Source of the DNA: a virus
Taxonomy: Duplodnaviria; Caudoviricetes
DNA: 54,140 nt
Direction: 5' to 3' (one strand)
Virus record (IMG/VR): IMGVR_UViG_3300031954_000008
Span: 1 to 54,140 of that record
In this document: positions 33,239 to 51,691 of the stretch, in pieces
How positions within the stretch are numbered: position 1 is the first letter of the stretch
Layout of the letters: each line of letters opens with the position of its first letter
Program-made: the position numbers and the translations under genes
Notes under the pieces: generated by a model
Database searches by the model: none
Told to the model about the DNA's origin: nothing
What the model saw: only the letters and a program-made list of their open reading frames with translations

Positions 33239-34159
33239 GTGGCAATCCTCACGTGCTCCGGTACTTGGGCCGCACCAGGTGTCGGCTACCCGAGCGACGT
33301 TGCCCGTGCCTGCGCTGATGTTGGCGACGAGATACCTGTACAGGCTCCGTGGAGCTTTGGGCCGATACCGCCTGGCGACTTCCGAGCGCCGAGCTATGCG
33401 GAATCTGTTGAGATAGGTGTTGATTGGGCCGTAGAGTGGATCATGGCTCATGAGGATAGGCCTGTGGTGTTGGGCGGGTATAGCCAAGGTGGCGAGTGCG
33501 CTAGCCGGATACGCATGGAATTTGAGCCTGGTGGCCGACTTGCGTATCTGAGGTCAAATTACGTGTGCGGCTACGCTTTTGGTAACCCTAGCCGTCACGA
33601 GCACAGCACCTATTTCGGTGGGCCACCCACGCCAGTTGAAGGCATAGCTGAGTTCCGCTTGCCTCAGATGGATTGGGACTGGTGCGAACTGATCGAACCA
33701 GGCGACTTATACGGCACCAGCGCTCGTGGGCTTACCGGCGAGATTCAACGCGACGTTTACACGCTGTGCACAGAGATGGAAATGCATAGTGGTGCGGTTG
33801 AGTTCGCCCGCACGTTTGCGGGCAATTGTGTTGAGGTAGCTCAGAATTTGGATGGGAATGCTTGGGATGATATTGAATCTCAAGTAGTCGCCAAAACAGG
33901 CAACGATCCTGGTTCAGCAGAGTTGTCAGAGGCAGAGATATTACAAATACAACCATTGACTGATCGACTGATCACGGTGAGAGGTATTTCAGCAGCTATA
34001 GCGGCAGCCGTCGATGCGTTGATATTCTTCTGTTCACCGCCGTTCCCGACAGCGCCGCATTGTGAATACCATGTGCGAGAAGTGTGGCCTGGCATGACTT
34101 ACGTCGGACTAGGAATACAGCACGTCCACGATTGGGTAAGAGCCTACCAAGGAGCATGA
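33239..34159 (+). CDS. lysB: Lysin B (cutinase-like serine esterase)
   Basis: GYSQG nucleophile elbow, FGNP.R, GDLY and a C-terminal His; follows lysin A. Confidence 0.85.
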   Translation: MAILTCSGTWAAPGVGYPSDVARACADVGDEIPVQAPWSFGPIPPGDFRAPSYAESVEIGVDWAVEWIMAHEDRPVVLGGYSQGGECASRIRMEFEPGGRLAYLRSNYVCGYAFGNPSRHEHSTYFGGPPTPVEGIAEFRLPQMDWDWCELIEPGDLYGTSARGLTGEIQRDVYTLCTEMEMHSGAVEFARTFAGNCVEVAQNLDGNAWDDIESQVVAKTGNDPGSAELSEAEILQIQPLTDRLITVRGISAAIAAAVDALIFFCSPPFPTAPHCEYHVREVWPGMTYVGLGIQHVHDWVRAYQGA

Positions 34160-34602
34160 TGGCACCGACCAGACACCCACTGATAGACCTCGTTTATAAC
34201 AACGAGACAGGCCGCTACATAGGCATGCTTGAACGCAAGCTCGTGGTCATGACGCTTGAGAACCTCAAGATGCGGGCGTTGCTTGAACTGCTTACTGGAG
34301 ATATGTGGGACGACAACAAGTTTGAAGCAGAGGACAAAGAGATATTCGACTTGGCTGTTGAAACACTTGAGAAGCGGCTACAGCTATCCCACAACGATGC
34401 AGTGAATTTGGTGAACGAGCGCTGGGAAGCGACCAACCCGCCCACAGACGAAGATGTCAGCACGTGGCTAATCGGTCAGCCGAAGAAGCCACCAAGAGTC
34501 ATCACGCACTCGCGGCCGATCAGCAACCCACCAGGCGTAGACATGAAGAAGCATCTAGCGGGTATCAAGCAGAGCCGCGATCACATGCGCGATCAGCTGT
34601 AG
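34156..34602 (+). CDS. Hypothetical protein
   Basis: SD AAGGAG, ATGA overlap, 148 aa. Confidence 0.65.
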   Translation: MMAPTRHPLIDLVYNNETGRYIGMLERKLVVMTLENLKMRALLELLTGDMWDDNKFEAEDKEIFDLAVETLEKRLQLSHNDAVNLVNERWEATNPPTDEDVSTWLIGQPKKPPRVITHSRPISNPPGVDMKKHLAGIKQSRDHMRDQL

Positions 34603-34835
34603 TCTTTCGGGTCCAGTCCACGTATGCGGTCCAGCTTAAAGCCGGACCACTTCTGGTCACCGGCCACGACGTAGGGCATTTGTGAAATCCCTTGTTCCCG
34701 AAGCTGTTCGGCGAACACAGGGTGCTCAACCACGTCAATCTCGTTGAACGGCAATGATCTTCGCGCCAACCACTTCTTCGTGTACTCGCACTGCACGCAA
34801 TCCGGCTTGGTGTAGACCGTTATTTGCTTAGGCAA
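34593..34835 (-). CDS. nrdH: NrdH-like glutaredoxin
   Basis: ITVYTKPDCVQC...MPYV...WSGF signature; SD GGAG on the minus strand. Confidence 0.9.
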   Translation of the reverse strand: MPKQITVYTKPDCVQCEYTKKWLARRSLPFNEIDVVEHPVFAEQLREQGISQMPYVVAGDQKWSGFKLDRIRGLDPKDYS

Positions 34836-35411
34836 CCTAACTCCGTTCCGGTAGCTCGTCGGACCCTAGCGATACGGTAACCCCGGCGACGAGCTAGGAG
34901 GTAGCCGGATGGCCAGGATTTGGCCAGGGACCAACGAGAACGGCTCCGGTGGGTAGGCGTACCGGCGCACCTAAAACAGCTGGTTACGCGCCACCAGGCC
35001 GGATCAGCCCGAACCGGGCCGATTAGGAGTAGCGTCAGACCTGGTCAGAGGGTATAGTCAGACCTACCGGCGAAGCCGGGACCAACTAAATACCGCGAAG
35101 CTGGTAAGGGAGATAGACCGCGCGTGAGAGGCGCGGAGATGGCTAGCCCGAACCGGAACTGTTACCCGGCGGCCTAAAGCAATGGGGATCGCGTACCTAG
35201 TACGGCGCGGGCGGTAGGTTTAGATGGTCTAGTTAATAAGGCGCGAGAGAGGACTACGGCGACCATGGCCGTAGGGACCCAGACGCGCCGAAATCCTATT
35301 CTATGGTTGTTGTTGGGGCAACGAAAGTTGCTGATTCCGTAGTGGTTTCGCCACTGCGGTTTCAGGGGCAGTTGTTGCTGACTCCAAAACCCAATAACCG
35401 AAAGGGAATTC
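34836..35411. promoter_or_regulatory. Divergent non-coding control region between nrdH and the early operon
   Basis: No credible ORF. Contains TAnnnT -10 candidates (TATAGT 35053-35058, TATTCT 35297-35302), repeated AGCCCGAACCGG boxes and the first leader element. Confidence 0.6.
35318..35411 (+). repeat. Hairpin + leader element, copy 1
   Basis: GC-stem-GG hairpin followed by CCAAAACCCAATAACCGAAAGGGAATTC-ATG. Confidence 0.85.
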
Positions 35412-35741
35412 ATGAGTAAGCTAAAAGATGGTGACCTGGTTCGCGTGGTGTCTGTGACTGACGTCGATGAGGAGATTGGTTCTCCGAAGCGAGTGGTTAC
35501 TGATCCGACGAATAAGGACACCTTCGACTGGACGGACACGGGTCGTAGCTTTATCGGGCAGATCGGGCGCGTGATGAGCGCGACGTTGAACGATTACTAC
35601 GATGTTGAGGTCTGGTTTGAGTGGATGGACGTGTACGAAGCCGCGTGTTTCAAGTATCCCGACGTTGAGTTAGTCGAACGTCCTGATGCGCCACTTGGTG
35701 TTTCGGAAACACGCGAAGCGATTGAGAGGCTGTCGAAATGA
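35412..35741 (+). CDS. Hypothetical early protein (SH3/KOW-like start LKDGDLVRV)
   Basis: 109 aa directly after the leader repeat. Confidence 0.75.
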   Translation: MSKLKDGDLVRVVSVTDVDEEIGSPKRVVTDPTNKDTFDWTDTGRSFIGQIGRVMSATLNDYYDVEVWFEWMDVYEAACFKYPDVELVERPDAPLGVSETREAIERLSK

Positions 35742-36058
35742 TCTATGCGAAGGTAAAGGTGCGCAAAGTTTGGGACCCTACCGAAGCCGGAACGTACCAC
35801 GCTCCGACTAAGAAGCGTTATAGCTTTGAGCACAAAGAGATCGTGGCCGGTGGCGAAGTCCACTGGCCGGCACTAACTTTCGATCGGTTCGACACTCGTA
35901 AGGATGCCCTGAAAGCTGCGGAGCAACGCGGCTGGAAGGTGGTTAAGACTTGGGATGAGGCGATTGCCGACGCTGGGTTGTACTCGCACGATGGGTACTA
36001 CCACAGCGCGACGAACTGCCCTTGCCCGAGTCAGTGGTGTTTGAACCACACCGCGTAA
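35738..36058 (+). CDS. Hypothetical early protein
   Basis: ATGA overlap; His/Cys-rich C-terminus. Confidence 0.7.
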   Translation: MIYAKVKVRKVWDPTEAGTYHAPTKKRYSFEHKEIVAGGEVHWPALTFDRFDTRKDALKAAEQRGWKVVKTWDEAIADAGLYSHDGYYHSATNCPCPSQWCLNHTA

Positions 36059-36146
36059 GTTGCGGCGGGTCAACGGGTTTCCCGTTGGCCCTGCGGAGCG
36101 AAGCGCGAGCTTTTAACCAAAAACCAACAACCGAAAGGGAATTGAG
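36059..36146 (+). repeat. Hairpin + leader element, copy 2
   Basis: GCGGCGGG-stem-CCTGCGG then AAAACCAACAACCGAAAGGG. Confidence 0.9.
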
Positions 36147-36791
36147 ATGACGATGGCGACAAAGGAACAAAAGCTGGCTTCTCCGAAGCAGCTGAAGTGG
36201 CTGAAGAGCCTGATCCAGCGCGAGTGGGTTAACTTCGACCCGAAGCACCATCCGCGTTTGGAGCAGATCAAGGCCGCGTTCGCCGTTTGCGATGAGCAGG
36301 ACTACGAACCGGAAATGGTCAATATCCTTCTCGCGTCGCAGGACCAAAAGCAGATCACGATGGCTGGGTTTGACTTCCTGCTGGAGAGGCTGAAAGACGC
36401 ACCACTGCCGAAAGGCGTTGCGGCTGAAGCTGCCCCGGCTGAGGCGTTGCCCTGGCCCGACGTATCGGTGCTGCCCGAAGGGCGGTACGGAATACCGACT
36501 GAAGAGGGCGCGATCAATGAGACCGCGTTCTACAAAGTGGACCGCCCGACCGAAGGCAAGTGGGCCGGTTACGTTTTCGTGAAGCTGATGGTTAGCGACT
36601 ACGAGAAGCGGTTGGCGATGGGGACGCAGAAAGCGGTCGCAAACAAAATCGCGGAGTACGGCGCAGCTAAGGCAAGTGCGTTGTACGGCAAGGAGTTCAA
36701 GCAGTGCGGCGTTTGCGGACGCGGCCTGACCAACGACTTGAGCCGTGAAATCGGTATCGGTCCTGACTGCCGTGCGAAGTACGGCTGGTGA
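36147..36791 (+). CDS. DUF6011-like zinc-finger protein
   Basis: C-terminal CGVCGRGLT...SREIGIGPDC; N-terminal ASPKQL motif. Confidence 0.75.
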   Translation: MTMATKEQKLASPKQLKWLKSLIQREWVNFDPKHHPRLEQIKAAFAVCDEQDYEPEMVNILLASQDQKQITMAGFDFLLERLKDAPLPKGVAAEAAPAEALPWPDVSVLPEGRYGIPTEEGAINETAFYKVDRPTEGKWAGYVFVKLMVSDYEKRLAMGTQKAVANKIAEYGAAKASALYGKEFKQCGVCGRGLTNDLSREIGIGPDCRAKYGW

Positions 36792-36877
36792 GAACGCGGC
36801 GGGTGCTGGGGCTTAGGCCCCAGCATCCTGCGGGTATCTCTACCAACCCAAAACCCAACAACCGAAAGGGAATTGCG
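36790..36877 (+). repeat. Hairpin + leader element, copy 3
   Basis: GCGGCGGG-stem-CCTGCGG then CCAAAACCCAACAACCGAAAGGG. Confidence 0.9.
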
Positions 36878-37102
36878 ATGTACAAGGTAACTGGGACTGT
36901 TCCTACTCCCCACTTCGATCCTGACAACCCGGTGTTTACCCACCACGAGAGCACGATGCCGAAGGGTAAGCCGTACCGGAATGGCACTGCCGGCCGCAAG
37001 GTTAGCGTTACGACCGAAAGCAAGAAGCGCGCCAACGAGCTGTCGGTGTCCATGGCGTCTAAGGGCTTGTTCCTGGACGTAACGATTGAAGAGACCAAGT
37101 AA
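36878..37102 (+). CDS. Hypothetical early protein (74 aa)
   Basis: ATG directly after the leader repeat. Confidence 0.75.
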   Translation: MYKVTGTVPTPHFDPDNPVFTHHESTMPKGKPYRNGTAGRKVSVTTESKKRANELSVSMASKGLFLDVTIEETK

Positions 37103-37105
37103 ATC

Positions 37106-37189
37106 GACTGAAAGTGCGGCGGGTACACCGGGTTTCCGGTGTGCCCTGCGGACTAGTCAGTCCAAAACCCAACAACCGAAAGGGATATT
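37106..37189 (+). repeat. Hairpin + leader element, copy 4
   Basis: Outer GACTGA/TCAGTC pairing, GCGGCGGG...CCTGCGG, then the leader. Confidence 0.9.
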
Positions 37190-38203
37190 ATGGCAACGAA
37201 AGATCAGGCGATCCAAAGGGTCATGAAGCTCTTGGCGCTGGCTGCCGACGAGAACGCTACCGAAGCGGAGCGCGAATTGGCTGCCCAGAACGCAGAGAAC
37301 CTCATGGCCCAACACATGATCGACCGATTCAATGACCTGAAAGACCTTGGGTCTCAGGCCAAAACGAAGCCAATCAAGGACACCTGGACCGTGACCTTGG
37401 GTAGGGAGAACCGCGAGTTCAATAGCGCGGTACGCTCCCTGATCATTGCGATCTTGAAGCACAACAACATTCGCTTCTACCCAAGGCTGGCGTGGGGTAC
37501 TGATGAGAACGGGCACACCGACTACGACACCGAAGTCTGGACGATAGTCGGTTATCCCGAAGACATCGCCTACGCCGAAGCGATTTGGTTTCGGGTGTTT
37601 CGTGAGTTCGTGATGAGCGTTAACCCAAGCTGGAATGCTTCACAGTCCTTGGGCTACAATCTGTTTCACCTCACACGGGCTGGTCTCAAGTGGAACGAAA
37701 TCTGGAAGATTGCGTACCGTAACGGTGCGGATGTTCCTGACCCGGCCACTAACAGCTACTCCGCTAACTCTCCGTCCATGCTCAAGCGCGAAGTCAAGAA
37801 GTACATGCGCGAAGCTGGGCTGGGGGACTACACGCCACATACTCAGCGGCACAAGGCTTATCGCTCCAGCTTCGCAGAGTCCTTCGCGGGCACCATCTCT
37901 CAGCGGCTCCGTACTATGCGGGCCGCAGCGGAGAAGGTTACCGTGGGCGACTTACTGCCGGCGCTACGGAGCACGGCTAAGTACGTCGATGAGGAGTTTG
38001 AGCGGTTGTTCGGCGACGAGATACGGAAGATGATGGCTGAGGACGCAGCTTACCGAGCGAAGCTGCCCCGACGCCGTTACCGGATCAAGGCAAGCGACAA
38101 CTACGACGAAACGGCGTGGGAGCGCGGTAACGCTGCCGCTCAAAAAGTCAACCTCAGGGCTGACGGCGAAGTTCGCCACCGGAAAGCTGGTGAGCTTCAA
38201 TAA
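37190..38203 (+). CDS. DUF2786-domain protein
   Basis: N-terminal RVMKLLALA...ATEAERELA...AENLMAQH pattern. Confidence 0.75.
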   Translation: MATKDQAIQRVMKLLALAADENATEAERELAAQNAENLMAQHMIDRFNDLKDLGSQAKTKPIKDTWTVTLGRENREFNSAVRSLIIAILKHNNIRFYPRLAWGTDENGHTDYDTEVWTIVGYPEDIAYAEAIWFRVFREFVMSVNPSWNASQSLGYNLFHLTRAGLKWNEIWKIAYRNGADVPDPATNSYSANSPSMLKREVKKYMREAGLGDYTPHTQRHKAYRSSFAESFAGTISQRLRTMRAAAEKVTVGDLLPALRSTAKYVDEEFERLFGDEIRKMMAEDAAYRAKLPRRRYRIKASDNYDETAWERGNAAAQKVNLRADGEVRHRKAGELQ

Positions 38204-38290
38204 CTTCCGAGTGAATATGCTGGGTGCCCTGCGGCTACGGTCGCAGGGTATCCAGGGTATAACACCCAAAACCCAACAACCGAAAGGGAA
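38204..38290 (+). repeat. Hairpin + leader element, copy 5
   Basis: 16-bp stem with TACG loop and GxG base mismatch, then the leader. Confidence 0.88.
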
Positions 38291-38530
38291 ATGATGAAGG
38301 TAACGATGATGTTCCAGGGTAACCTGGGGTATGGTCCTGACCAAGTCAATGGAATGTCGCTTGAAGAGCTCAAAGAAGCTGTCGAGATGGCGATTTGCGA
38401 CTACGGCGAAGATGCCGAAGTCGTACTTGAGCAGACGAACAATGGCCACGGTGCGAACTTTGGCAAGCTGTATTCATTCAGCGAATTGTTCCAAGCGGCT
38501 GATGAGGATGAGGATGAGGTGGACGAATGA
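38291..38530 (+). CDS. Small acidic hypothetical protein
   Basis: 79 aa after the leader; acidic C-terminus. Confidence 0.75.
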   Translation: MMKVTMMFQGNLGYGPDQVNGMSLEELKEAVEMAICDYGEDAEVVLEQTNNGHGANFGKLYSFSELFQAADEDEDEVDE

Positions 38531-39177
38531 AACGATTGCTGTTGGCAGTCGGGATAATGGCGGCGTTCTTGGCCGTCTGTATCGCGTTCTCGCCCAACAA
38601 TAAATCCAGCACGAACGTGCCGCCGTTACAGCCGATACCGTCAACAAAGACGGTAACGGTTACGGCGACAACGAATCTAGATACACCAAGTCCTAACGGG
38701 AATTGCTGGAACGATGCAGCAGGGCCAGGGTGCGGAACCACAACGGCGCCAACGACTACCGTTGCGCCGACTGGGCCGTGCGGTTACACGATAGGTTGTC
38801 AGGAGACAGTTCCTGGCGTACCTATGGTGCCGCCTGGTGGAACGCTACCGACTACATCGTGGGGACCAGATCAGTACCAGCAGTACTTCTGCGACCACAT
38901 GAACCCGAAGCCACCCGGCTGTCCGGCTACTACGGTGCCTGGCGTACCGGGCGCGATACCGGGCCAAGTCGTGAGCTACAAGACCGCTCCGTATTCCTGT
39001 GACGGGCAATATAACCCGCCACCGGGAGCGATTTGCGCCGGTGCTACTCCGTGCTGGCTGCAAGACCCAAACTGCTCGACTACGCCTGGCGTACCGGGTA
39101 CTTGGGGACCAGGTGGGTACACCCCACCTTGCTATGGTCAATCGTGGTGCGGCGGCAGACGTTCACCCGGCTACTGA
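38527..39177 (+). CDS. Membrane-anchored or secreted Cys/Pro/Thr-rich protein
   Basis: N-terminal hydrophobic helix; about 12 Cys; TVPGVP and WGP repeats. Confidence 0.7.
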   Translation: MKRLLLAVGIMAAFLAVCIAFSPNNKSSTNVPPLQPIPSTKTVTVTATTNLDTPSPNGNCWNDAAGPGCGTTTAPTTTVAPTGPCGYTIGCQETVPGVPMVPPGGTLPTTSWGPDQYQQYFCDHMNPKPPGCPATTVPGVPGAIPGQVVSYKTAPYSCDGQYNPPPGAICAGATPCWLQDPNCSTTPGVPGTWGPGGYTPPCYGQSWCGGRRSPGY

Positions 39178-39258
39178 GCGAAAGCGCGGCGGGCGCAAGG
39201 GCTTTGGTCCTTGCGTCCTGCGGGCTAATCGCCCAACCCAACAACCGAAAGGGAAGAT
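39177..39258 (+). repeat. Hairpin + leader element, copy 6
   Basis: GCGGCGGG-stem-CCTGCGG then CCCAACAACCGAAAGGG. Confidence 0.9.
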
Positions 39259-39435
39259 ATGTGGATGAAACACGCCATGCGTGATGAGGCTGGTGGCTTG
39301 GTTGAAACTGAGCCGACAGCGGATTACGTAGGCAGACACCGACTTTGGGAATCGACGCATAACAGCAGCGGTGACCAGGTGTACATGGGCTGCCCAGCCT
39401 GTGTTTCGGAACTACACGAAATGGATGTGAAATGA
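39259..39435 (+). CDS. Small hypothetical protein (58 aa, not in the ORF track)
   Basis: ATG after the leader; MWMKHAMRDE...CPAC...DVK*; ATGA overlap with the next gene. Confidence 0.7.
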   Translation: MWMKHAMRDEAGGLVETEPTADYVGRHRLWESTHNSSGDQVYMGCPACVSELHEMDVK

Positions 39436-39917
39436 CCACGACGATGACAGACGACCGCAAGCGGTTTCTCCTGTACATGTTCACGACCGCTCTGGAGGGC
39501 GGAATTGGATATTGGTCTGTCGCTGAGGAATACCACTGGGCCAACGACAAGGCCGGTGGCGATCCAGCAGGCGACATCAATGGCTTCTTTGCGGTGTTAT
39601 CGGCTAACGATGACGATGGCAACTGGGGCGTCGATAAGGCATACCAGCCGCGGATTGCCGGCGACCCAATCAAACTCGACTGCGGCGCAGGCGAATTGAC
39701 CGTTGACCTGAAAGTTATGGAACGCGGCATGAACCTGTTCGTAGACAAGGTGATTGAAGCTACTAAGTCAGAGGACCCAGACGCACCGTTCAGCCGGAAG
39801 TATCTCCGGCAAGCCGTTACCCAATGGCTATCGAACGGCGAAGATGGAGACTCCGACGCGGATGTCGCAGACCTCGTGGTTCAGCTGGGCCTGTTTGGTG
39901 AGGTGGTGTACTGCTGA
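39432..39917 (+). CDS. Hypothetical protein
   Basis: 161 aa; ALEGGIGYW...DADVADLVVQLGLFGEVVY motif familiar from other phages. Confidence 0.75.
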   Translation: MTTTMTDDRKRFLLYMFTTALEGGIGYWSVAEEYHWANDKAGGDPAGDINGFFAVLSANDDDGNWGVDKAYQPRIAGDPIKLDCGAGELTVDLKVMERGMNLFVDKVIEATKSEDPDAPFSRKYLRQAVTQWLSNGEDGDSDADVADLVVQLGLFGEVVYC

Positions 39918-40105
39918 TGTACGTCGAATTTCCAGGCGGCACAAGACATCCTGATGGCTATATCGCTCCGTGCGAGATAGTCAAGCGGATACCGGGGTGG
40001 GCCAAAGTACGGCTTGCCCCGGCTCCACCGCACAATAACCACTCCTGGTCTCAATGGGTAAGGGAGAGCCAGCTTTTGACAGATTCGGAAGTCGAAGCGG
40101 GCTAG
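39917..40105 (+). CDS. Small hypothetical protein
   Basis: 62 aa; TGATG overlap. Confidence 0.6.
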   Translation: MYVEFPGGTRHPDGYIAPCEIVKRIPGWAKVRLAPAPPHNNHSWSQWVRESQLLTDSEVEAG

Positions 40106-40127
40106 CCCGAACCGGGCTAAGAGAGTA

Positions 40128-40223
40128 AGCTAAGGACCGTGCTAGGTGGCTATCGGGTGGCTCCCGGTAGCTATCTAGGGTGTCGTCTTAGCACCCGAAA
40201 ACACAACAACCGAAAGGGAATTC
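40128..40223 (+). repeat. Hairpin + leader element, copy 7
   Basis: Outer GCTAAGGA/TCTTAGC pairing, 16-bp inner stem, then ACAACAACCGAAAGGG. Confidence 0.85.
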
Positions 40224-40823
40224 ATGATGGAGAGGGTTATTCGTAACCCAAGTGGATACAGGTCTCATGGCTCTACAGCCATGGACAAGGCCGCTCACTT
40301 TGGCGACTACGCGAAAGCGTACGGCTGGAAGGGCGGTTGGACCACTACCGACGGCATGCTCAATCTACAAGCGAGCCGTGGGGACAACGAAACCATGAGC
40401 ATCTCGTGGAATGAGGAGACTGGTAAGTTCATCGAAGCAGTCTACACCCTGGCAGGCGATAGCATCAAGTGCCAGAACGTATCTGCGGCCGCCAACATCG
40501 CGGCTAAACCGCCGAGCGCCGAGCGGCTTAAGACGGCTGTGCGGAAACGTACGCCCGATAAAGTCGAGGCAGCAGCGGAAACCATTGCAGCAGTACAGGG
40601 TACGTTGCCTTTTGATCACGAATCTAGCGATGAAGAGGTCAAGGCAGTACTCAACAACAAGAGCATCGTCTGGGTCAACCGGATTAGCGGAGCGTTGAGC
40701 TCAGCGCTGGTTGGCGGGAAGATGTTCCGCGTTGTCAACAATGGTGCGCCGCGCCAAATTTCGTTTTGCGATAACTACGGCTACCACGCCGTGTATCTGG
40801 ATTCGATTGTGAGCGTTGGCTAA
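40224..40823 (+). CDS. Hypothetical protein
   Basis: 199 aa after the leader repeat. Confidence 0.75.
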   Translation: MMERVIRNPSGYRSHGSTAMDKAAHFGDYAKAYGWKGGWTTTDGMLNLQASRGDNETMSISWNEETGKFIEAVYTLAGDSIKCQNVSAAANIAAKPPSAERLKTAVRKRTPDKVEAAAETIAAVQGTLPFDHESSDEEVKAVLNNKSIVWVNRISGALSSALVGGKMFRVVNNGAPRQISFCDNYGYHAVYLDSIVSVG

Positions 40824-42769
40824 TGGCTAAGAAGCGACTGTGGGCTATCGGCCTAGACGATGACTGCATCTGGATCATGACTGACCGTTACGATCCTGAC
40901 GCGAATGCCGCTCTGAAAGCGTACCTGCCTGGCCCTGCTAGGTGGAACCGCGATAAGGCGCGCTGGCAGTTTCCTATCCACTGGGACTCGTGTACTGGAG
41001 CACGTAAGGTAGCCAACAAGTTTGGCGCTGATCTGAAAATGACAGCGGCGCTAGTCGAGTGGGCTACTCACGAGAAGTCGCACCAGGACACGATACCGGA
41101 TGTACAATCCATGGATCTTGTTGACCTGCCACGTGTTCGAGAGCACGCGCCGGACATCTGGAAGATTATGTCGGAAGGCATTCCTGAATTGGGTTACCCG
41201 CCAAGGCCATACCAAACGGTAGGCGCGGCGTTCGCGGCACGGAACCGTTCGTGCTTGATCGCTGACCAACCGGGCCTGGGTAAGACCATTCAGACCATCG
41301 CGGCGATAGTGGAGGCTGATATTAGTGGCCCCATCCTCGTCGTAGCGCCGAAAGCAGCGGTTCAGTTAACCTGGCCGCAGGAGCTAAAGCGTTGGTTGCC
41401 AACGGATAACGTGATCACTCTTGACTCCAAGCTGAGTCCGAGTGGTCGCGTGGAAGCTGTCAAGGCAGCGCTGGCTACCGTCGAACACGGCGGCAAGCGG
41501 TGCTGGCTGATTACTTCGCCCAACTACGTTCGCATTCGTGCGAAGGTGGATGAGTACGGTAATTACGAGAAGGTCAACGGCGAGAAGGTCATTCACGCCG
41601 TACGTGAAACGGTTCTTGAGCTGTTTGGTGTCGAGTGGTCCGCCATCGTGGTGGACGAGTCACACCAGACGTTAGCGGGAGCCACCGGCAACAAGAAGAA
41701 GCAGAGCGCGCAACGGCTTGGCCTGGGCGCGTTGAACGTCCGTAAGGATGGTCTGCGAATTGCGTTGTCGGGCACGCCTTTCCGTGGCAAGGAATACTAC
41801 CTGTGGGGTCAGCTGAACTGGTTGCGGCCGGATAACTACCGGAGCTACTGGAACTGGATCAAGCGACACTTCAACACGTGGCACGATGGCTACGGGCAGC
41901 AAATCGGAAAGATGATCGACGCCGAAGCGATGTATGATGAGGCTCGCAACGTTATGATCCGTCGCACGAAAGAAGAAGTGGCAAGTGACTTGCCCGCCAA
42001 GCTATACGGCGGTTGGCCGTTGATACCTGGTGGGCCGGTTGCGGTTTGGCTGGACATGGAACCGAAGCAGGCAGCTGCTTACGAGTCTATGGTCAAGAAG
42101 GCTGAAGCTGATCTGGAGGGCGGCACGCTCGTAACGAACGGTATCTTGGCGGAGCTAACCCGGTTGAAGCAATTCGCCGGTAGCTACGGCATGATGGCCG
42201 GTGAGCAGTTCATCCCGACGTTACCCAGTAACAAGTTCGACTGGTTGCTGGAGATGCTGGATGAGCGCGGTATCGACGGTGAGTTGGCGGGTCTACCTTA
42301 CGACGAGCGCGTGGGTGTGCCCAAAGTGGTTGTGTCCTCCCAATTCTCGCAGCTGATCAATGCCTTTGCGAAAGGGCTGGGCGAGAAGGGAATCAAGGCT
42401 CACGTATTCACTGGTGATACGTCGGATAAGAAGCGCGAAGACATCAAGTCGGATTGGCAAGAGAATCTAACGAGTGACACCCGCGTACTGCTTCTTACTA
42501 CGACCGCTGGCGGTGTCTCGCTTACGCTGGACGCTGCCGACGAGCTTGTGCTACTGGATGAAACCTGGAACACGAGCGATCAAGAGCAGGTGGAAGATAG
42601 GCTCCACCGGCTATCCCGTATCCACCAAGTTGTGATCTGGAAGGTGTTCTCTCGCGGAACGATTGAAGAGGGCATCGCAAAGGCCAACTTAGACAAGGAG
42701 GTTAGCATCAAGTCAATCATAGATGGGCAGCGCGGCGTGGGCTTCACTAAGGAGTTGCTTCACCCGTGA
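40823..42769 (+). CDS. SNF2-family DNA helicase
   Basis: DQPGLGKT, VVDESH, LSGTP, MIRRTK, GGVSLTL and QVEDRLHR motifs. Confidence 0.92.
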   Translation: MAKKRLWAIGLDDDCIWIMTDRYDPDANAALKAYLPGPARWNRDKARWQFPIHWDSCTGARKVANKFGADLKMTAALVEWATHEKSHQDTIPDVQSMDLVDLPRVREHAPDIWKIMSEGIPELGYPPRPYQTVGAAFAARNRSCLIADQPGLGKTIQTIAAIVEADISGPILVVAPKAAVQLTWPQELKRWLPTDNVITLDSKLSPSGRVEAVKAALATVEHGGKRCWLITSPNYVRIRAKVDEYGNYEKVNGEKVIHAVRETVLELFGVEWSAIVVDESHQTLAGATGNKKKQSAQRLGLGALNVRKDGLRIALSGTPFRGKEYYLWGQLNWLRPDNYRSYWNWIKRHFNTWHDGYGQQIGKMIDAEAMYDEARNVMIRRTKEEVASDLPAKLYGGWPLIPGGPVAVWLDMEPKQAAAYESMVKKAEADLEGGTLVTNGILAELTRLKQFAGSYGMMAGEQFIPTLPSNKFDWLLEMLDERGIDGELAGLPYDERVGVPKVVVSSQFSQLINAFAKGLGEKGIKAHVFTGDTSDKKREDIKSDWQENLTSDTRVLLLTTTAGGVSLTLDAADELVLLDETWNTSDQEQVEDRLHRLSRIHQVVIWKVFSRGTIEEGIAKANLDKEVSIKSIIDGQRGVGFTKELLHP

Positions 42770-43059
42770 CTGAAATCGCTTATGCGGCAATTGGGGCCGC
42801 GTCCATGCTCAGCTTCGCGCTGGGCCTCTGGGCGCGGCCTTTTTTGTCTCGAAATCTGTTTACGAAAGTTGTTGAGCCGCAAGAGCTTTCGGCACTGATG
42901 GATCGAATTGTCAATCAGGAAGAAGCTGAAGAGCGACGCAACGAGATACGACGGATGCTACACGACTCTGGCCGCCGTACGATGCGGCTAGATGGTGGCG
43001 CCCCGGCTAAGGTACACCGAATGCGGCGTGTCAAACGGGTACGTGGAGACCGCGAATAG
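42766..43059 (+). CDS. Small membrane protein
   Basis: N-terminal transmembrane helix; GTGA overlap; SD AAGGAG. Confidence 0.65.
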   Translation: MTEIAYAAIGAASMLSFALGLWARPFLSRNLFTKVVEPQELSALMDRIVNQEEAEERRNEIRRMLHDSGRRTMRLDGGAPAKVHRMRRVKRVRGDRE

Positions 43060-43185
43060 CACCGCAATTCTTGGCAGAAAGTGGGTAAGAAACCTGTCGA
43101 AACCTGGCTAAACTATAGACACGACCATGGTAAACGGGTAGCGTTGGCTCCGTTATCGACTTCGCCAATACGAAAGGATATGCCA

Positions 43186-43935
43186 ATGAGCGAAGCTACT
43201 ACGGCGGGAGCGACCGTAACTTATACGGACAATCTCGGCAAGCAGGTCACCAAAGAGGTCAAGCCGACAGAGGCGCATGAGTCATTCCAAAGATGGCTCG
43301 CTGCTGGAGGTTTGACCATTCCTGTCGATCACGTCGCGGCCGCAATCGTGTTGCACGGCGAGTGGCAAGGGAGCAAGGGCCGCTCAGCTGAGCGAAAGGC
43401 ATTGCGCGAGCAGCGTTATGCCAACGAGAAGGCTGCACGCGAGCAATCGCGTATCGACGCCGACAAGAAGCGCGCCGAAGCAGACCAGGCCCGCGCCGAC
43501 AAGCAGGCCGAAGCTGACAAGAAGCGTCAGGACCGCGAAGCGGAGCAGGAGAAGAAGCGCCAGGACCGCGAAGCGAAAATTGCTGAGCAGGACCAGAAGC
43601 GCGCTGACGCCGAAGCTGAGCGCGACCGCAAAGCCAAAGAGCGCGACGAGAAGCGCGAGAAGGCAGAGCAGGAGCGTGAAGAGAAGCGCCAGAAGCGCGA
43701 GCAGGAGAAGGCAGACAAGGCCGCCAAGGCCGAAGCCGACAAGGCCGCCAAGGCGGCTGAGAAGGCAGCCAAGGATGCCGAAGCTGCATCTTCCGGTGCC
43801 GACGGTGACGACTCCGGCTCTGCTCCTGTCGATGGCCAGCCTGTTGGTCGTGGTGCGTTGCAAGAGGCGAAGCGCGAAGGACGCAACCTCAAGCGCCGCA
43901 GCCCTGTTGGCCAGAGCGCCGGCAATTTCGGTTAA
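43186..43935 (+). CDS. Highly charged coiled-coil protein
   Basis: SD GAAAGGA; long E/K/R/A-rich repetitive helix. Confidence 0.75.
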   Translation: MSEATTAGATVTYTDNLGKQVTKEVKPTEAHESFQRWLAAGGLTIPVDHVAAAIVLHGEWQGSKGRSAERKALREQRYANEKAAREQSRIDADKKRAEADQARADKQAEADKKRQDREAEQEKKRQDREAKIAEQDQKRADAEAERDRKAKERDEKREKAEQEREEKRQKREQEKADKAAKAEADKAAKAAEKAAKDAEAASSGADGDDSGSAPVDGQPVGRGALQEAKREGRNLKRRSPVGQSAGNFG

Positions 43936-44016
43936 GCGTCCGAAGCCCACACAGGACTAAAACGCGGTGGGCCAGGCCCCAGCCGGAACGTGGCGAGATA
44001 CGCAACTCGCACGGCT

Positions 44017-44129
44017 GGGTGCCCTGGTGGATGTCAGGCTAGTCGTGGCCACGCTAAGCAGCCTTGGCCTGACATCCTCCAGGGTATGGCAACCCTGGTA
44101 AGAGAAGAACAACCGAAAGGGAAACTGAA
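44017..44129 (+). repeat. Hairpin + leader element, copy 8 (divergent)
   Basis: CCCTGG.GGATGTCAGGC / GCCTGACATCC.CCAGGG stem, then AACAACCGAAAGGG. Confidence 0.7.
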
Positions 44130-44372
44130 ATGGCAATTACTGCTGCCGAATTGAAGGTGCTGGGCGGGCCACTCGCGCCTGGCGCTTACGAGGTCTGGGC
44201 ATTCCTCATGAGGAATCAGAATGGAAGTGGCCTCACTGTCGACCACATCGCTCGTAAGCTCAAGCTAAACTATATGACGGTGTATCTCCGTCTAGGCGGG
44301 AGCATGGGCAACGGCTACGTTCAGCGCGATAACGGTAGGCCTGCAAAGTATTACGCGGTGGTGCCCTCGTGA
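44130..44372 (+). CDS. Winged helix-turn-helix DNA-binding protein
   Basis: LTVDHIARKLKL...TVY.RL...GYV...GRPAKY (TrmB-like wHTH). Confidence 0.7.
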   Translation: MAITAAELKVLGGPLAPGAYEVWAFLMRNQNGSGLTVDHIARKLKLNYMTVYLRLGGSMGNGYVQRDNGRPAKYYAVVPS

Positions 44373-44893
44373 GAATTACCATCACGCCGGAAGGCAACAT
44401 TGAGTTCGACGTTGACCTGGCGAACGGCCACATCGCAGAGGCCGCTGCGCTAATGCGGGCGGTCCAACAGGAGTACGCACCGGCGACTACTCCGCAGCCG
44501 GTAGCGCCGACACGAGAAGCCACGACGGTGGCGCGTAGGGAGAACGCCGAAGCGCGCCGTAAGGCTTTAGCTCTCGCGGAGCGGAAAGCCAACAGCCGGT
44601 ACTACCAACTCAAGGCTAGCCAGGGTGCACGTACGTCGCGGATTGTAGCGGAGACATACGATTACATCGCTAGCTACAAGAACGGCCGCACTACGGATCA
44701 GCTATGCGAGCACTTCCACACGGGCAAGGCTACGGTGTGGAGTCGTACCGCATCGCTGCTGAAGGATAAGCTGATTGTTCAACCGGGTGGTAAAGGTTCG
44801 CCATGGGTGGCGACCAACGCACCGTTGGTGCCGCCCATGGGAACTGAGCATCACCCGACTCCATCCGACATGCCCAAAAGGAAGCAATCGTGA
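44369..44893 (+). CDS. Helix-turn-helix DNA-binding protein
   Basis: C-terminal TTDQLCEHF...KATVWSR...L...LI pattern. Confidence 0.6.
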   Translation: MRITITPEGNIEFDVDLANGHIAEAAALMRAVQQEYAPATTPQPVAPTREATTVARRENAEARRKALALAERKANSRYYQLKASQGARTSRIVAETYDYIASYKNGRTTDQLCEHFHTGKATVWSRTASLLKDKLIVQPGGKGSPWVATNAPLVPPMGTEHHPTPSDMPKRKQS

Positions 44894-45213
44894 CTAAAGC
44901 GCCGAGTACCCAAGAGTGTTGCTGGTCCACCAGACCTGGTGAACACAACCCGAATTGCAAGAAAATGCTTGAGCGTGATGAGCGCCGAGCGATGCGTGAA
45001 AGCAAATCGTTGAAACACCAAGTAGCCCATGCGATCTTTGGGAAGCTTTGGACCATCGACAACGAGAAGTGGATTTGGCCATTCGGCGGTAAGCCAGAAG
45101 GCGTGATCCATGTTGACTTCCAACGTGTTTCGCCGTTAGAAGGGCAACTGCGCATCAAGACTAAGCACGACGGCACCCACTACATCAACATCAAGATCAG
45201 CGAGATGCTATGA
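44890..45213 (+). CDS. Hypothetical protein
   Basis: 107 aa with overlapping start/stop codons. Confidence 0.65.
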   Translation: MTKAPSTQECCWSTRPGEHNPNCKKMLERDERRAMRESKSLKHQVAHAIFGKLWTIDNEKWIWPFGGKPEGVIHVDFQRVSPLEGQLRIKTKHDGTHYINIKISEML

Positions 45214-45428
45214 GAGGTCTTGACGACTGGTTGACCCGTGAGCCGGAAGATACCGGCTTACTCCTGAGCGATAGGCGCATCAAAGCTAAACGGGCACATG
45301 TGTGTAACAGCTGCAAGCGTACCATCAACCCAGGCGAGAAGTACCGCCGGCAATTCGCTATCTTCGACGGAGAGCCGGTCACCTACAAGATGTGCTCCGA
45401 TTGCATCGCAAGGGAATACGATGCCTGA
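45210..45428 (+). CDS. Small zinc-finger protein
   Basis: KAKRAHVCNSC..I.PGEKY...C..C. Confidence 0.7.
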   Translation: MRGLDDWLTREPEDTGLLLSDRRIKAKRAHVCNSCKRTINPGEKYRRQFAIFDGEPVTYKMCSDCIAREYDA

Positions 45429-45555
45429 GTGCCCACACTGCCAACAAGAGATTGAGCCCTGTGCCCGTTGCGGCACGGGGTTCATTCACGTTGATACGCA
45501 ATACCATTCATGTGCAGACAAACAAACTTTCGCGCAGGAGACTACGAATGGCTGA
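45421..45555 (+). CDS. Small Cys-rich (zinc-ribbon) protein
   Basis: MPECPHC...CARC...; fills the gap and overlaps both neighbours. Confidence 0.55.
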   Translation: MPECPHCQQEIEPCARCGTGFIHVDTQYHSCADKQTFAQETTNG

Positions 45556-46741
45556 GTTGCCGTTGTTAAGGCAGAGCGAGAGAGCAGCTTTCAAACGCTG
45601 CCAGTGGGCGTGGTACCAGCAGTACGTTCGCGGCCTGGAGCCACTGATGCCAAGAGGCATGGAGCTAGCGGAGTTTGGGACGCTCGTCCACGTAGCTCTG
45701 GCTGGGTACTACCTACCTGGCCTAAAGCGCGGGCCGCATCCTGCCGAGACTTGGGAGCAACTAGCCAAGGACATGATCACCACCGTCAGGACGATGGAGG
45801 TACGCGACGATGAGCTGGTGGCCAAGTGGGAGGACTTCTACACGCTTGGCGCGGAATTGCTTGTCGCATATGTAAATCGGTACCAAGGTGACCCGCACTG
45901 GGACGTGCTAGACGCCGAGCGCCGGTTTGATGTCCTGATACCGGATGTGCGGGTGCCGCGTATGGAGTCGAAGAAGGGCAGGCGGGTTTACACACCAATC
46001 GTGAAATTGGTTGGAACGATTGACCTTTGCTACCGTGACCTCAACCAGGAGGACCCAAAGGGCAGGCCGCTCATCAAGATGGTGGACCACAAGACGATGA
46101 CGAAGATTGAAACCCGCCACCTAACGCTAGACGAGCAGCCGTCCACGTACATCGCCGTGGGCACGCATTCCCTTCAGCGCCAAGGACTTATCGAGAAGGA
46201 TCAAGTCATTGCCGGCATGGAGTGGAACATCATCAAGCGCGCCAAGCTCGACACTCGCCCACGCGACGTCAATAATCAGGCCCGTAACAATCCCCAAAAG
46301 CGCCACTACATAGACGCTCTCGTCACGCACTTGGACAGCGACTACGTGGAGAGCGACCGCGAAGGATTGATGAAGCTGAAAATGACTGACCTAGAAGCGA
46401 TTTGCGCTCAGCAGTGCGTTGGTCCGGTCTACGGCGACATCAGCGCAGACCAGAGCACAGACAACTTCCTGCGCTACTTTGTGCCGCGTACTCCGAAGGA
46501 ACGGCAGCGCCAGATCGTTCGCATCAGCGAAGAAGCGCGAGTGATGGCTGAGGTACGCGGCGGCAGGTTGCCTGTACTGAAGACTCCGACGAAGGACTGC
46601 CCGTGGTGTAAGTTCTTCGACCTGTGTGAGCTTGACGAAAGTGGAGGTGACACAGAGTATTTCATTGAGACTGCGATGAAGACATTCGATCCTTACGCGG
46701 ATCACCGTGAGGGTGCGGACAATAGCAAGAAGGTGAGGTGA
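45548..46741 (+). CDS. Cas4/RecB-like PD-(D/E)xK exonuclease
   Basis: SD AGGAG; S...FKRC, GTLVH, E, GTIDL, DHKT and C-terminal CPWC...C (four-Cys Fe-S type). Confidence 0.85.
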   Translation: MAELPLLRQSERAAFKRCQWAWYQQYVRGLEPLMPRGMELAEFGTLVHVALAGYYLPGLKRGPHPAETWEQLAKDMITTVRTMEVRDDELVAKWEDFYTLGAELLVAYVNRYQGDPHWDVLDAERRFDVLIPDVRVPRMESKKGRRVYTPIVKLVGTIDLCYRDLNQEDPKGRPLIKMVDHKTMTKIETRHLTLDEQPSTYIAVGTHSLQRQGLIEKDQVIAGMEWNIIKRAKLDTRPRDVNNQARNNPQKRHYIDALVTHLDSDYVESDREGLMKLKMTDLEAICAQQCVGPVYGDISADQSTDNFLRYFVPRTPKERQRQIVRISEEARVMAEVRGGRLPVLKTPTKDCPWCKFFDLCELDESGGDTEYFIETAMKTFDPYADHREGADNSKKVR

Positions 46742-50744: not shown

Positions 50745-50749
50745 TATAA

Positions 50750-50878
50750 ATGGATTATGTTTCGTTACACCACCATTCGACTTTTTCATATGGAGATGGT
50801 TATGGTTTGCCTGAAGAACATGTTGAGCGTTGTGCAACGCTTGGTATGAAAGCTATGGCGTTGACGGAACATGGTTGA
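50750..50878 (+). CDS. dnaE: DnaE PHP domain, first 42 residues (ends at an in-frame TGA)
   Basis: MDYVSLHHHSTFSYGDG...AMALTEHG*; strong SD GGAGGTGA; same frame as the ORF at 50885. Confidence 0.85.
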   Translation: MDYVSLHHHSTFSYGDGYGLPEEHVERCATLGMKAMALTEHG

Positions 50879-51691
50879 GGTAACGTGTCGAGCCATGTAC
50901 AGCTTGAGAAGGCGTGTACCAAGTTTGGCATCAAACCGCTGTTCGGCCTTGAGGGTTACGTTGCCCCGCCCAACGAGCGCAGGAAGTGCCATCAGACCAT
51001 CCTAGCCATGACGCAGGCTGGTTATTCAAACCTGAACAAGTTAGTCGTTGAGTCGTGGAAAACCATTGGGAGAACCAGCAAGACACGGTTTCCGACGATT
51101 CACGTTGAGATGCTTGAGGAGTTTAGTGACGGACTCATTGTACTCTCTGGATGTTCTGATTCGGTGCTTGCCTGCACGCTCTTTGGTGGAAAGTCTTACG
51201 GTGCACCAGGATTCAGATTCGACCCAGAGCAATATCGGCGTGCCCTTGGGGTCGTGGAATGGTACCAAGAGGTATTTGGCGACAGGTACTACCTTGAAAC
51301 TCAGCGCTTTCCTGCGCTGCGTCGAACTTGTAAGATCAATCAGGCCTACGAGCGCATTTCCAGAGACACCGGAGCACAACTTGCTGCGACGAGCGACTGT
51401 CATTATGTCTATGCTAGAGACAACGAGATGCAGAAGGTTCTTCATGCGGCTCACCGTGGTTCTAGCGTATCCGCCACAGAAGCGGCTTGGGAGTACAACG
51501 TAACACTAGACATACCAGAGAGCGACGAGCGCGTGTACCAAGACCTTTTGGGCACGGGGTTAACGGAAGATGGTGCGTTACAAGCACTCTCGAACACCGG
51601 GGTGATAGCTGATCGTTGTGACGTGAAGCTCGCAAAGGTAGAACCGCTGCGGTATCCAATTGAGGGGAAGGACTGGCTACCGTGGTCGTAA
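50879..51691 (+). CDS. dnaE: DnaE PHP domain, remainder
   Basis: GNV...GIKPLFGLEGY...H...GYSNL...LSGC...YYLE.Q...ATSDCHY...IADRC. Confidence 0.88.
   Translation, partial: GNVSSHVQLEKACTKFGIKPLFGLEGYVAPPNERRKCHQTILAMTQAGYSNLNKLVVESWKTIGRTSKTRFPTIHVEMLEEFSDGLIVLSGCSDSVLACTLFGGKSYGAPGFRFDPEQYRRALGVVEWYQEVFGDRYYLETQRFPALRRTCKINQAYERISRDTGAQLAATSDCHYVYARDNEMQKVLHAAHRGSSVSATEAAWEYNVTLDIPESDERVYQDLLGTGLTEDGALQALSNTGVIADRCDVKLAKVEPLRYPIEGKDWLPWS

Follow-up and report, generated by a model that had tools for sequence, protein, structure and literature searches.

This study concerns a repeated intercistronic element in the right arm of a phage genome fragment, the IMG/VR virus record IMGVR_UViG_3300031954_000008, whose whole linear stretch of 54,140 bp (completeness estimate 76%) was analyzed and is called the window below. 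Its genes lie nearly all on the + strand in a siphovirus-like order, running from structural genes through lysis genes into a right arm with a helicase, an exonuclease, and a DnaE-type polymerase. Megablast of positions 35000-41000 against 50,697 phage records returned no match, that is, no close DNA relative there; by protein comparison, the closest phages are the Mycobacterium phages Onyinye, Aikoy, and Leopard (terminase 69% identical), followed by the Cluster D phages at ~50%. Onyinye is given in a table of PMC8263002 as a singleton that is not temperate, and the window phage is an Onyinye-like lytic actinophage from soil. Eight times within the right arm, the + strand carries the same two-part arrangement: a stable hairpin, and then a G-poor, C/A-rich leader that ends in the octamer CAACAACC and runs into a Shine-Dalgarno sequence and a start codon (Table 1). 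A complementary sequence, here termed the anti-leader, precedes the first copy.

With gene starts set by the open reading frames (ORFs) that follow the leaders, the copies fill eight of the nine larger gaps of the right arm, and all other right-arm junctions overlap or measure 21 nt at most. The gaps that hold the eight copies are at least 81 nt long, the ORF after each copy has 58 codons or more, and the hairpins of copies 2-6 start either on the upstream stop codon or no more than 8 nt after it. The ninth larger gap (50745-50884), which has no copy, lies just before the split DnaE-like polymerase genes and is A+T-rich relative to its surroundings (G+C 48.5% in the 50-52 kb bin).

Table 1. 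Anti-leader and element copies of the window. Hairpins were located by folding and leader motif sites by pattern scan; z is the hairpin folding score against dinucleotide shuffles, and R1 is the covariance model described in the text.
Feature	Position	Strand	Hairpin	Leader motif site	Start codon	z	Remarks
Anti-leader ATGGTTGTTGTTGGGG	35303..35318	+					complementary to leader core CCCAACAAC; directly 5′ of first hairpin
Copy 1	35318..35411	+	35318-35378	35392	ATG 35412	-7.3	leader with CAATAACCGAAAGGG; R1 E 3e-6; leader unpaired probability 0.25
Copy 2, type A (GCGGCGGG..CCTGCGG)	36052..36146	+	36052-36107	36125	ATG 36147	-4.8	hairpin overlaps stop codon 36056-36058
Copy 3, type A	36786..36877	+	36786-36845	36856	ATG 36878	-6.7	hairpin overlaps stop codon 36789-36791
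Copy 4, type A	37106..37189	+	37106-37162	37170	ATG 37190	-6.5	gene encodes DUF2786 protein
Copy 5, type B (GCTGGGTG..TATCCAGGG, G-U/U-A/G-U)	38211..38290	+	38211-38265	38274	ATG 38291	-7.9	best R1 score, 55.7 bits
Copy 6, type A	39175..39258	+	39175-39235	39239	ATG 39259	-5.5	hairpin starts on stop codon 39175-39177
Copy 7, type B	40129..40223	+	40129-40192	40204	ATG 40224	-5.2	first gene of helicase block
Copy 8, variant	44014..44129	+	44014-44099	44107	ATG 44130	-5.7	U-U mismatch hairpin, core 44022-44084; leader GAACAACCGAAAGGG

The family extends beyond the window phage, which had escaped the first-pass annotation of this DNA. A covariance model, R1, was built from 14 seed hairpins, all from the window or Onyinye; run over 199,613 bases (the window, all of Onyinye, and regions of Hawkeye, PLot, L022, and L023), it returned the seeds and nothing else. 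A leader-pattern scan of IMG/VR gave 81 loci, and R1, run over 80 of them, singled out three relatives (E 2e-8 to 0.15), here called G001, G002, and G003, which together hold 11 non-seed copies recognized by the model (E 3e-9 to 0.02). In total there are 30 copies in five independent genomes, always in one 5-9 kb cluster at the head of the right arm: in addition to those of the window, there are seven in Onyinye (before genes 54, 55, 56, 57, 59, 60, and 64), eight in G001 (73.8 kb, complete), five in G002 (71.3 kb, complete), one of them degenerate, and two canonical copies plus one hairpin of the copy-8 type in G003, an 8.9-kb fragment ~73-81% identical to the window. The copies of Aikoy and Leopard, the same as those of Onyinye bar 1 nt, were left out of the count because they are not independent of them. 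G001 and G002 are related to the window phage (terminase 71% identical, with much of the structural and replication gene set in common), and the five element-bearing genomes make up one clade (terminase 69-71% identical); G+C content is 48% in G001, 52% in G002, 54% in the window, and 59% in Onyinye. Among the soil-metagenome runs listed, 24, under 20 study codes, each contain at least 88% of the sampled words of positions 35200-44200, six of these runs being possible sources of the record, and contigs from four soil runs also include diverged relatives, one form being G003-like.

Further searches added no genome. Ribosome binding sites of the GAAGGGAA type do occur in the Cluster D phages Hawkeye and PLot, but R1, run on a 17-kb region of each, detected no hairpin, and by eye the gene starts there are without the CAACAACC leader. 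Scanning IMG/VR for the pattern of type A hairpins (types are defined below) returned 55 loci and no genome beyond G001 and G002; four of the 53 new loci gave weak model matches (E 0.11-0.93), and all were rejected. A pattern joining the type B box to the leader had no match in IMG/VR, and its single match in metagenome contigs, which has no 20-mer in common with the window and no accompanying hairpin family, was discarded. Also dismissed as chance were nine single matches of the exact 17-nt leader in IMG/VR and the locus L079 (R1 E 0.05, without a leader). Blastn with one whole element returned only a chance 24-nt match, the family thus being invisible to BLAST. IMG/VR searches with the DUF2786 protein yielded no locus, and those with the helicase yielded one identical fragment and two 44% relatives, the latter without elements. 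Checked against described RNA families, as the first-pass annotation had advised, positions 34000-45000 matched none of 4227 Rfam families on either strand at E up to 1. As far as we searched, no paper describes these repeats in Onyinye-type phages, and the family appears to be new to print.

The leader was found by pattern as well as by eye. A 15-nt motif (CAACAACC-GAAAGGG) has eight + strand matches in the window at no more than one mismatch, all between 35.4 and 44.1 kb, and these are the eight copies originally noticed before start codons; at the same threshold the - strand of the window has none, nor does a reversed control pattern match. Allowing up to three mismatches, the CAACAACCGAAAGGG pattern matches nine times against 1.47 expected (0 of 100 shuffles reach nine); the ninth site, at 8519 with three mismatches, was judged unrelated. 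The closeness of leader and start codon stands, with a corrected spacing: the distance, at first put at 4-9 nt, reads directly as 2-8 nt from the GGG in the window copies, copy 5 running GGGAA-ATG-ATG. Across the five genomes, the exact CAACAACC is present in 26 of 30 copies and is followed 7-21 nt later (median 14) by an ATG (28 copies) or GTG (2), the Shine-Dalgarno part varying among genomes (GAAAGGGAA, AAGAGGGAA, AGAGGGAG, and others). Identity between copies spans ~24 nt within the window and 8-9 nt between genomes.

Composition and predicted folding agree with the initial description of the leader as unstructured. The 30-nt leaders that end with the octamer are poor in G (C 322, A 310, T 142, and G 126 of 900 over the 30 copies), and in partition-function folds made in context, leader plus Shine-Dalgarno average an unpaired probability of 0.66 over the 26 non-first copies, compared with 0.46 ± 0.10 at 31 other start regions of the window. 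The leader is thereby predicted to resemble a C/A-rich standby site, a single-stranded C/A segment beside the ribosome binding site. Two such systems are described in the cited portions of earlier work: single-stranded CA-repeat tails, best at 16-18 nt, strongly increase translation by ribosome standby, an effect that an antisense oligonucleotide abolishes (PMC5934652), and translation is enhanced by ACA motifs just 5′ of the Shine-Dalgarno, which are subject to silencing by a G/U-rich small RNA (PMC3879156).

One hairpin stands 5′ of each leader. The shared form is irregular and takes up about 55-65 nt; the window hairpins are 55-86 nt long, with energies of -35 to -42 kcal/mol and z scores of -4.8 to -7.9; over 15 hairpins tested, z ranges from -2.8 to -9.4, and the stability of five whole elements (z -3.7 to -5.7) was equaled in 0 of 200 shuffles. 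Beneath a loop of 3-5 nt in most copies, and of up to 10, comes an upper stem, mostly of 9-12 bp and variable in sequence among copies, followed by a weak zone and 2-4 pairs. Below those pairs lies a 1x1 purine-purine mismatch in the context 5′ G-C ... G-G 3′, and under it a stem of 3-4 bp, an asymmetric A/purine-rich loop, and a lower stem of 4-9 bp. By the form of the weak zone, we distinguish type A, with a 2x2 loop GC/UG (window copies 2, 3, 4, and 6); type B, with a paired run G-U, U-A, G-U (GGUG/UAUC; window copies 5 and 7); type C, with a 3x3 loop (Onyinye genes 54-56); and type D, with UU/UU (G003), a form also present in window copy 1. Much of this had been glimpsed from the start: the differing sequence and constant geometry of copies 1-7, the G-G mismatch in its 5′ GC...GG 3′ context, the A-rich internal loop in the stem below it, and the GCGGCGGG...CCTGCGG shared by four copies (2, 3, 4, and 6) are all borne out. 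An upper stem of 15-16 bp, as then described, is continuous only in copies 5 and 7, being broken by the 2x2 loop after 11-12 bp in copies 2, 3, 4, and 6 and by the UU/UU loop after 10 bp in copy 1.

In an alignment of 28 hairpins the mismatch is G-G in 26 and A-A in two, both from G002, with no mixed case, and the C-G pair that flanks it is likewise held (C at column 13 in 28/28, G at column 54 in 26/28). It can be read in 23 of 30 unconstrained folds, at a depth of 14-18 nt from the loop on the 5′ arm (mode 16). Four of the other seven folds took another form in 100-nt context, and three are without such a mismatch at that depth: copy 8 and G002 copy b4 are off-architecture, and the hairpin o56 has a 2x2 loop there. 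The hairpin of copy 8 is longer, contains a U-U mismatch, and lacks the G-G one, and R1 misses it; in the corresponding slot of G003, the flanks are kept and the inner stem is different. Twenty-four of the 30 folds take the full hairpin form, with 20-34 pairs and a weak zone 7-14 bp (mostly 9-12) below the loop. That a destabilizing purine-purine mismatch is kept so strictly implies a specific reader.

Is it the pairing that persists, rather than the sequence? In an alignment of 14 hairpins (MAFFT, with RNAalifold), 14 pairs emerge, 12 of them with compensatory changes, and 93.3% of the cells are paired, compared with 59.4% after column shuffling (0 of 500 shuffles reach the observed value) and 31-47% with the partners slid. 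Extending this to 28 hairpins from the five genomes gives 16 pairs, 14 compensatory, with 90.2% of cells paired against 62.9% shuffled and 34-49% slid, and 112 double-change cells against 36. Because these structures were derived from the same sequences on which they were scored, a separate test scored 14 hairpins of G001-G003 against the structure obtained from the window and Onyinye alone. Here 90.1% of 192 cells are paired; shuffles reach 65.1 ± 2.3% (maximum 73.4% of 1000) and slid partners 31-48%, and since the genomes belong to one clade and the copies are related by descent and duplication, none of these shuffle counts is a probability. This test used the rows of the 28-hairpin alignment (A6), as MAFFT of the 14 new hairpins alone (A7) misregistered types A and B on the 3′ side. 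The mean pairwise identity of the hairpin 5′ arm is 0.50, and pairing is nonetheless kept. Two orthologous slots, before the DUF2786 gene (window copy 4 and Onyinye gene 57) and before the helicase block (copy 7, Onyinye gene 64, and G003 c2), have unrelated stem sequences of the same shape. The hairpin structure is under selection.

Several observations place this selection at the level of RNA. In all 15 hairpins compared, folding favors the + strand over its reverse complement, with a margin of 1 to 24 kcal/mol. Of the 346 pairs, 51 are G-U; read from the opposite strand, these would become A-C mismatches. Positions 34000-46000 contain no sigma-70-like promoter match, against 4.8 expected. 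No T-run follows any hairpin, and none of the 16 terminator-like sites in the scan (11.3 ± 3.7 expected) coincides with a copy hairpin. Considering these points together with the absence of an Rfam match, the element acts as + strand RNA, co-transcribed with the genes. The covariation, the + strand folding, and the missing U-tract had each been put forward in the first-pass annotation, and each holds.

The first copy is preceded by the anti-leader, which had gone unmentioned before. It is the only exact match in the window, and (A/T)TGGTTGTTGTTGGG, which includes the reverse complement of the leader core, is found at the same place in four of the four genomes that have the region. The 575-nt intergenic region around it has largely diverged from that of Onyinye, and the anti-leader sits in the block that is best conserved between them. 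Folding predicts pairing between the anti-leader and the copy 1 leader, and the first-copy leaders have unpaired probabilities of 0.25, 0.27, 0.39, and 0.40, the four lowest of 30. The anti-leader may lock the first cistron in cis or may protect the 5′ end, and a role in trans on the other leaders is possible. An upstream ORF (MVVVG...) was considered in its place and rejected: the frame is 7 codons long in G001 and G002 and 38 in the window, and in Onyinye it merges with gene 54, so that its length is not conserved and there is no conserved peptide.

Two further features were seen around the first copy. Gene 54 of Aikoy (L025 6031-6609) is annotated from a TTG inside the anti-leader, its coding sequence running through the first hairpin and leader, and in Onyinye (L001 6145-6609) and Leopard the same gene starts at the ATG after the leader; the longer Aikoy call is probably an over-extension. 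In addition, TAGCCCGAACCGG(GC) occurs three times, at 35005-35019 and 35144-35158, in the long gap before the first element, and at 40103-40117, at the stop codon before copy 7. The first two sites lie within blocks conserved with Onyinye. These sites resemble TAGCGCGAATCGGG repeats before right-arm genes of Cluster D phages and are candidate promoters or operators.

Among the neighboring genes, that at 43081-43935 encodes a 284-aa protein without a Pfam match, whose central and C-terminal part is of low complexity and rich in lysine, glutamate, arginine, and alanine; its repeat region shows many variants and loose ends in soil contigs. Two more stable hairpins lie at 43936-44013, between the stop codon at 43935 and the copy-8 hairpin, and part of one recurs inside the copy-8-type hairpin of G003. 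The product of the gene after copy 8 (44130-44372), an 80-aa TrmB-like winged-helix protein (Pfam E 2e-6), may regulate transcription of the long gene block that follows. At the other end of the window, the C-terminal part of a large ORF (3-2801), open at the window start, weakly resembles an ADP-ribosyltransferase domain, scoring under the Pfam cutoff (E 6.6e-4), and the Onyinye counterpart of this ORF, gene 16, is annotated as an ADP-ribosyltransferase.

What might such an element do? Considering its position between coupled gene blocks, its geometry of about two helical turns with a weak zone, and the lack of a terminator tail, we rank first, and regard as about evenly balanced between right and wrong, the idea of an intercistronic RNA module that would combine a processing or stability hairpin with a C/A-rich standby enhancer and a strong Shine-Dalgarno. 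Each copy would be a two-part, cis-acting + strand signal at a break between translationally coupled gene blocks of what is presumably one long early transcript. A double-strand-specific endonuclease, for which host RNase III is the obvious candidate, might nick the hairpin at its weak zone, or the hairpin might just block 3′ exonucleases; either way, the upstream message would end in a protective stem, and the downstream start would be shielded from upstream sequence and from terminating ribosomes. The leader, a G-poor C/A single strand of ~15-25 nt ending in CAACAACC, would act as ribosome standby site and enhancer, giving each block the same strong, context-independent start. In the first copy, the anti-leader would pair with the leader across the hairpin, and because of this pairing cistron 1 is predicted to be closed until the structure is opened or cut. 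RNase III cleavage is plausible, as the hairpins fit the expected geometry, in which a stem of some two helical turns is interrupted at the target by an internal loop, bulge, or mismatch, the helix here measuring ~20-26 bp with the weak zone ~9-12 bp below the loop in most copies. As given in the cited part of PMC3867540, the idealized E. coli substrate is 22 bp long, and a loop, bulge, or mismatch at the target leads to single-strand cleavage, leaving RNA-stabilizing 3′ hairpins.

Several considerations weigh against this processing-and-enhancer module. Copy 8 and G002 copy b4 depart from the shared architecture, and the kinship of the copies by descent and duplication limits, as said, what the shuffle controls can mean. 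Simple stability or insulation would leave the invariant mismatch unexplained, which points to a specific reader. We infer the single early message, its cleavage, the stabilization, and the enhancement, and even the designation of these genes as early is taken from their position after the lysis genes and from gene content. Cleavage by RNase III is suggested by geometry alone, under rules that come from E. coli rather than from the actinobacterial enzyme, and the evidence for enhancers and standby, as far as the cited portions of the sources go, comes from enterobacteria (PMC5934652, PMC3879156).

Alternatively, the elements may form an RNA operator regulon, in which a phage or host RNA-binding protein, acting as repressor, activator, or antiterminator, would bind the mismatched hairpins and switch all seven to eight early blocks, with processing secondary or absent. 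Regulator binding at the hairpins is plausible: the mismatch is invariant in kind, both sides changing together between G-G and A-A, and is held at a fixed depth despite its cost in stability, which argues for some specific reader; its flanking C-G pair is invariant too, and type-specific boxes such as GGUG/UAUC hold their sequence even where the pairing register shifts. In keeping with a regulon, the lysine/glutamate/arginine-rich protein encoded at 43081-43935 is found by tblastn in Onyinye, G001, and G002, the other three complete genomes with the element, and not in Hawkeye, a co-occurrence that depends, however, on one negative genome. Against such a regulon, Pfam finds no candidate RNA-binding domain in 19 proteins scanned from the region and its flanks, and the coexistence of at least four box types, even within one genome, would be awkward for one sequence-specific protein; we hold it to be possible, if doubtful. 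A bolder scheme, which we think unlikely, is a self-contained post-transcriptional circuit, in which the anti-leader would be a cis lock that, freed by cleavage of the first hairpin, would become a trans-acting anti-enhancer on the seven to eight leaders, and the mismatch-marked hairpins would dock a nuclease or RNA-binding reader. If true, it would set the timing of translation for the early genes as a whole and later switch it off, and would be a phage-encoded counterpart, in an actinophage, of the logic of GcvB and the ACA enhancers.

The remaining explanations look to transcription or to DNA. Stable, G+C-rich hairpins right after stop codons, in genes that all lie on one strand so that graded read-through would set expression levels, could be factor-independent attenuators or terminators without a U-tract that step down transcription along the early region. 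Yet the tails of all eight copies are A/C-rich, the hairpins are absent from the terminator-like sites of the scan, termination would need neither the invariant mismatch nor the conserved leader, and eight serial terminators before the helicase and polymerase genes would starve the replication genes, all of which makes attenuation quite improbable. DNA-level sites are, in our judgment, very improbable, whether as a leader and inverted anti-leader forming an operator in the manner of the Cluster A stoperators or as a hairpin representing a promoter with an inverted-repeat operator, comparable to the extended start-associated sequences (ESAS) of Cluster K mycobacteriophages. The asymmetric conserved site, in one orientation relative to transcription and with one inverted copy at the head of the region, the winged-helix protein encoded just after copy 8, and the reading of ESAS as SigA promoters with an inverted repeat in the cited part of PMC11373665 would suit them. 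They are at odds with the lack of promoter-like sites in the region, with pairing maintained through G-U pairs that are mismatched on the other strand and in duplex DNA terms, with a leader that is joined to the Shine-Dalgarno and keeps a fixed spacing to the start codon, and with the non-temperate status given for Onyinye (PMC8263002, as cited above); moreover, stem sequences and lengths vary among copies, so that no hexamers can be conserved there. Finally, the repeats might mainly be homology patches for the exchange of gene cassettes among related phages, a role that the first-pass annotation had allowed for. Between the window and Onyinye, four of seven syntenic slots hold homologous genes and three unrelated ones; a 58-codon gene is missing from G003 exactly at the leader border, and one soil contig has the same junction (38291 joined to 39443, with only 24 letters on the short side). 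Such swaps are expected of mosaic phage genomes anyway, however, and identity between copies is short; with hairpins that vary in sequence, recombination would have little homology to work with. Direct repeats would favor deletions too, and neither the selection on base pairing nor the start-linked leader is explained, so that as a main function, exchange is barely credible. Of the interpretation first offered, then, the selected structure, the + strand RNA, and the open leader stand, RNase III cleavage and regulator binding are plausible, and cassette exchange is supported only in part.

Returning to the processing-and-enhancer module, it provides a concrete and testable model of how a lytic actinophage might split one long early message into separately stabilized, uniformly translated units. 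Since Onyinye is an isolated phage of M. smegmatis mc2 155, tests of the model would be ordinary ones, and leader plus hairpin could serve as insulated expression parts in mycobacterial genetics.

In the early region of phage T7, irregular RNase III hairpins without a terminator tail stand between the cistrons of a polycistronic early message. The present hairpins are like them in spanning about two helical turns with an internal loop, in their intercistronic position between gene blocks, and in the missing terminator tail. They differ in that the host enzyme here would be actinobacterial and that cleavage is proposed from geometry. The T7 sites are also similar to one another in sequence, whereas the stems here differ, and we know of no T7 site that has an invariant purine-purine mismatch or a fused conserved leader. 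Cluster A stoperators, in turn, are DNA sites of the immunity repressor in temperate phages, with no fixed link to a start codon or a hairpin. They too are many short asymmetric sites in short intergenic gaps with one orientation relative to transcription; the present sites differ from them in being fused to a Shine-Dalgarno and in belonging to a phage group given, in the part cited, as not temperate (PMC8263002). Stoperators are mentioned in PMC3203893.

For the leader, the closest parallel is with the C/A-rich enhancers and standby sites (PMC5934652, PMC3879156), which, in the portions cited, share a G-poor C/A stretch of ~16-20 nt directly 5′ of the Shine-Dalgarno and an ACA/CAA motif. As with GcvB, a complementary G/U-rich sequence, here the anti-leader, can close the enhancer (PMC3879156, cited part). 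The cases described there are enterobacterial and concern single genes or chromosomal regulons; here, by contrast, a near-invariant octamer is repeated five to eight times per complete phage genome, with its complement in cis at the operon head.

The nearest described system is the start-associated sequences (SAS) of Cluster K mycobacteriophages. In the cited portions of PMC3203893, these are short, asymmetric, conserved sequences that include the ribosome binding site and lie a few nucleotides before mostly ATG starts. They are confined to the non-structural right arm, where they precede, always in one orientation, genes whose upstream gaps are unusually long, and no function is assigned to them; the criterion is a 13-bp consensus, GGGATAGGAGCCC, with at most two departures, 3-8 nt before the start codon. 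The copies here correspond in strand (8/8 on +), gap length, and preference for ATG. The SAS consensus itself, at up to two mismatches, has no match in the window, the leader here being CAACAACC plus GAAAGGG. About half of the SAS have an upstream inverted repeat with a variable spacer, the ESAS, and every leader here has its hairpin. As described in the parts cited (PMC3203893, PMC11373665, PMC12699233), the arms of ESAS are imperfect 17-bp inverted repeats of conserved sequence, in which the departures give no support to RNA pairing, and they are now read as SigA promoters with an operator. The arms of the present hairpins, in contrast, vary in sequence and stay paired, G-U included, with no promoter-like site in the region, and since they differ in sequence while keeping their pairing, the structure is RNA. 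The family is a distinct, RNA-structured variant of SAS/ESAS-type start-linked sequences. For the start-associated repeats of mycobacteriophages, known since 2011, no mechanism has emerged, and the current reading of their inverted repeats is as DNA promoters; beside them stands a second, unrelated start-associated system with RNA-level selection, marked by covarying stems, G-U pairs, a fixed mismatch, an open leader, and a complementary closer of the first copy.

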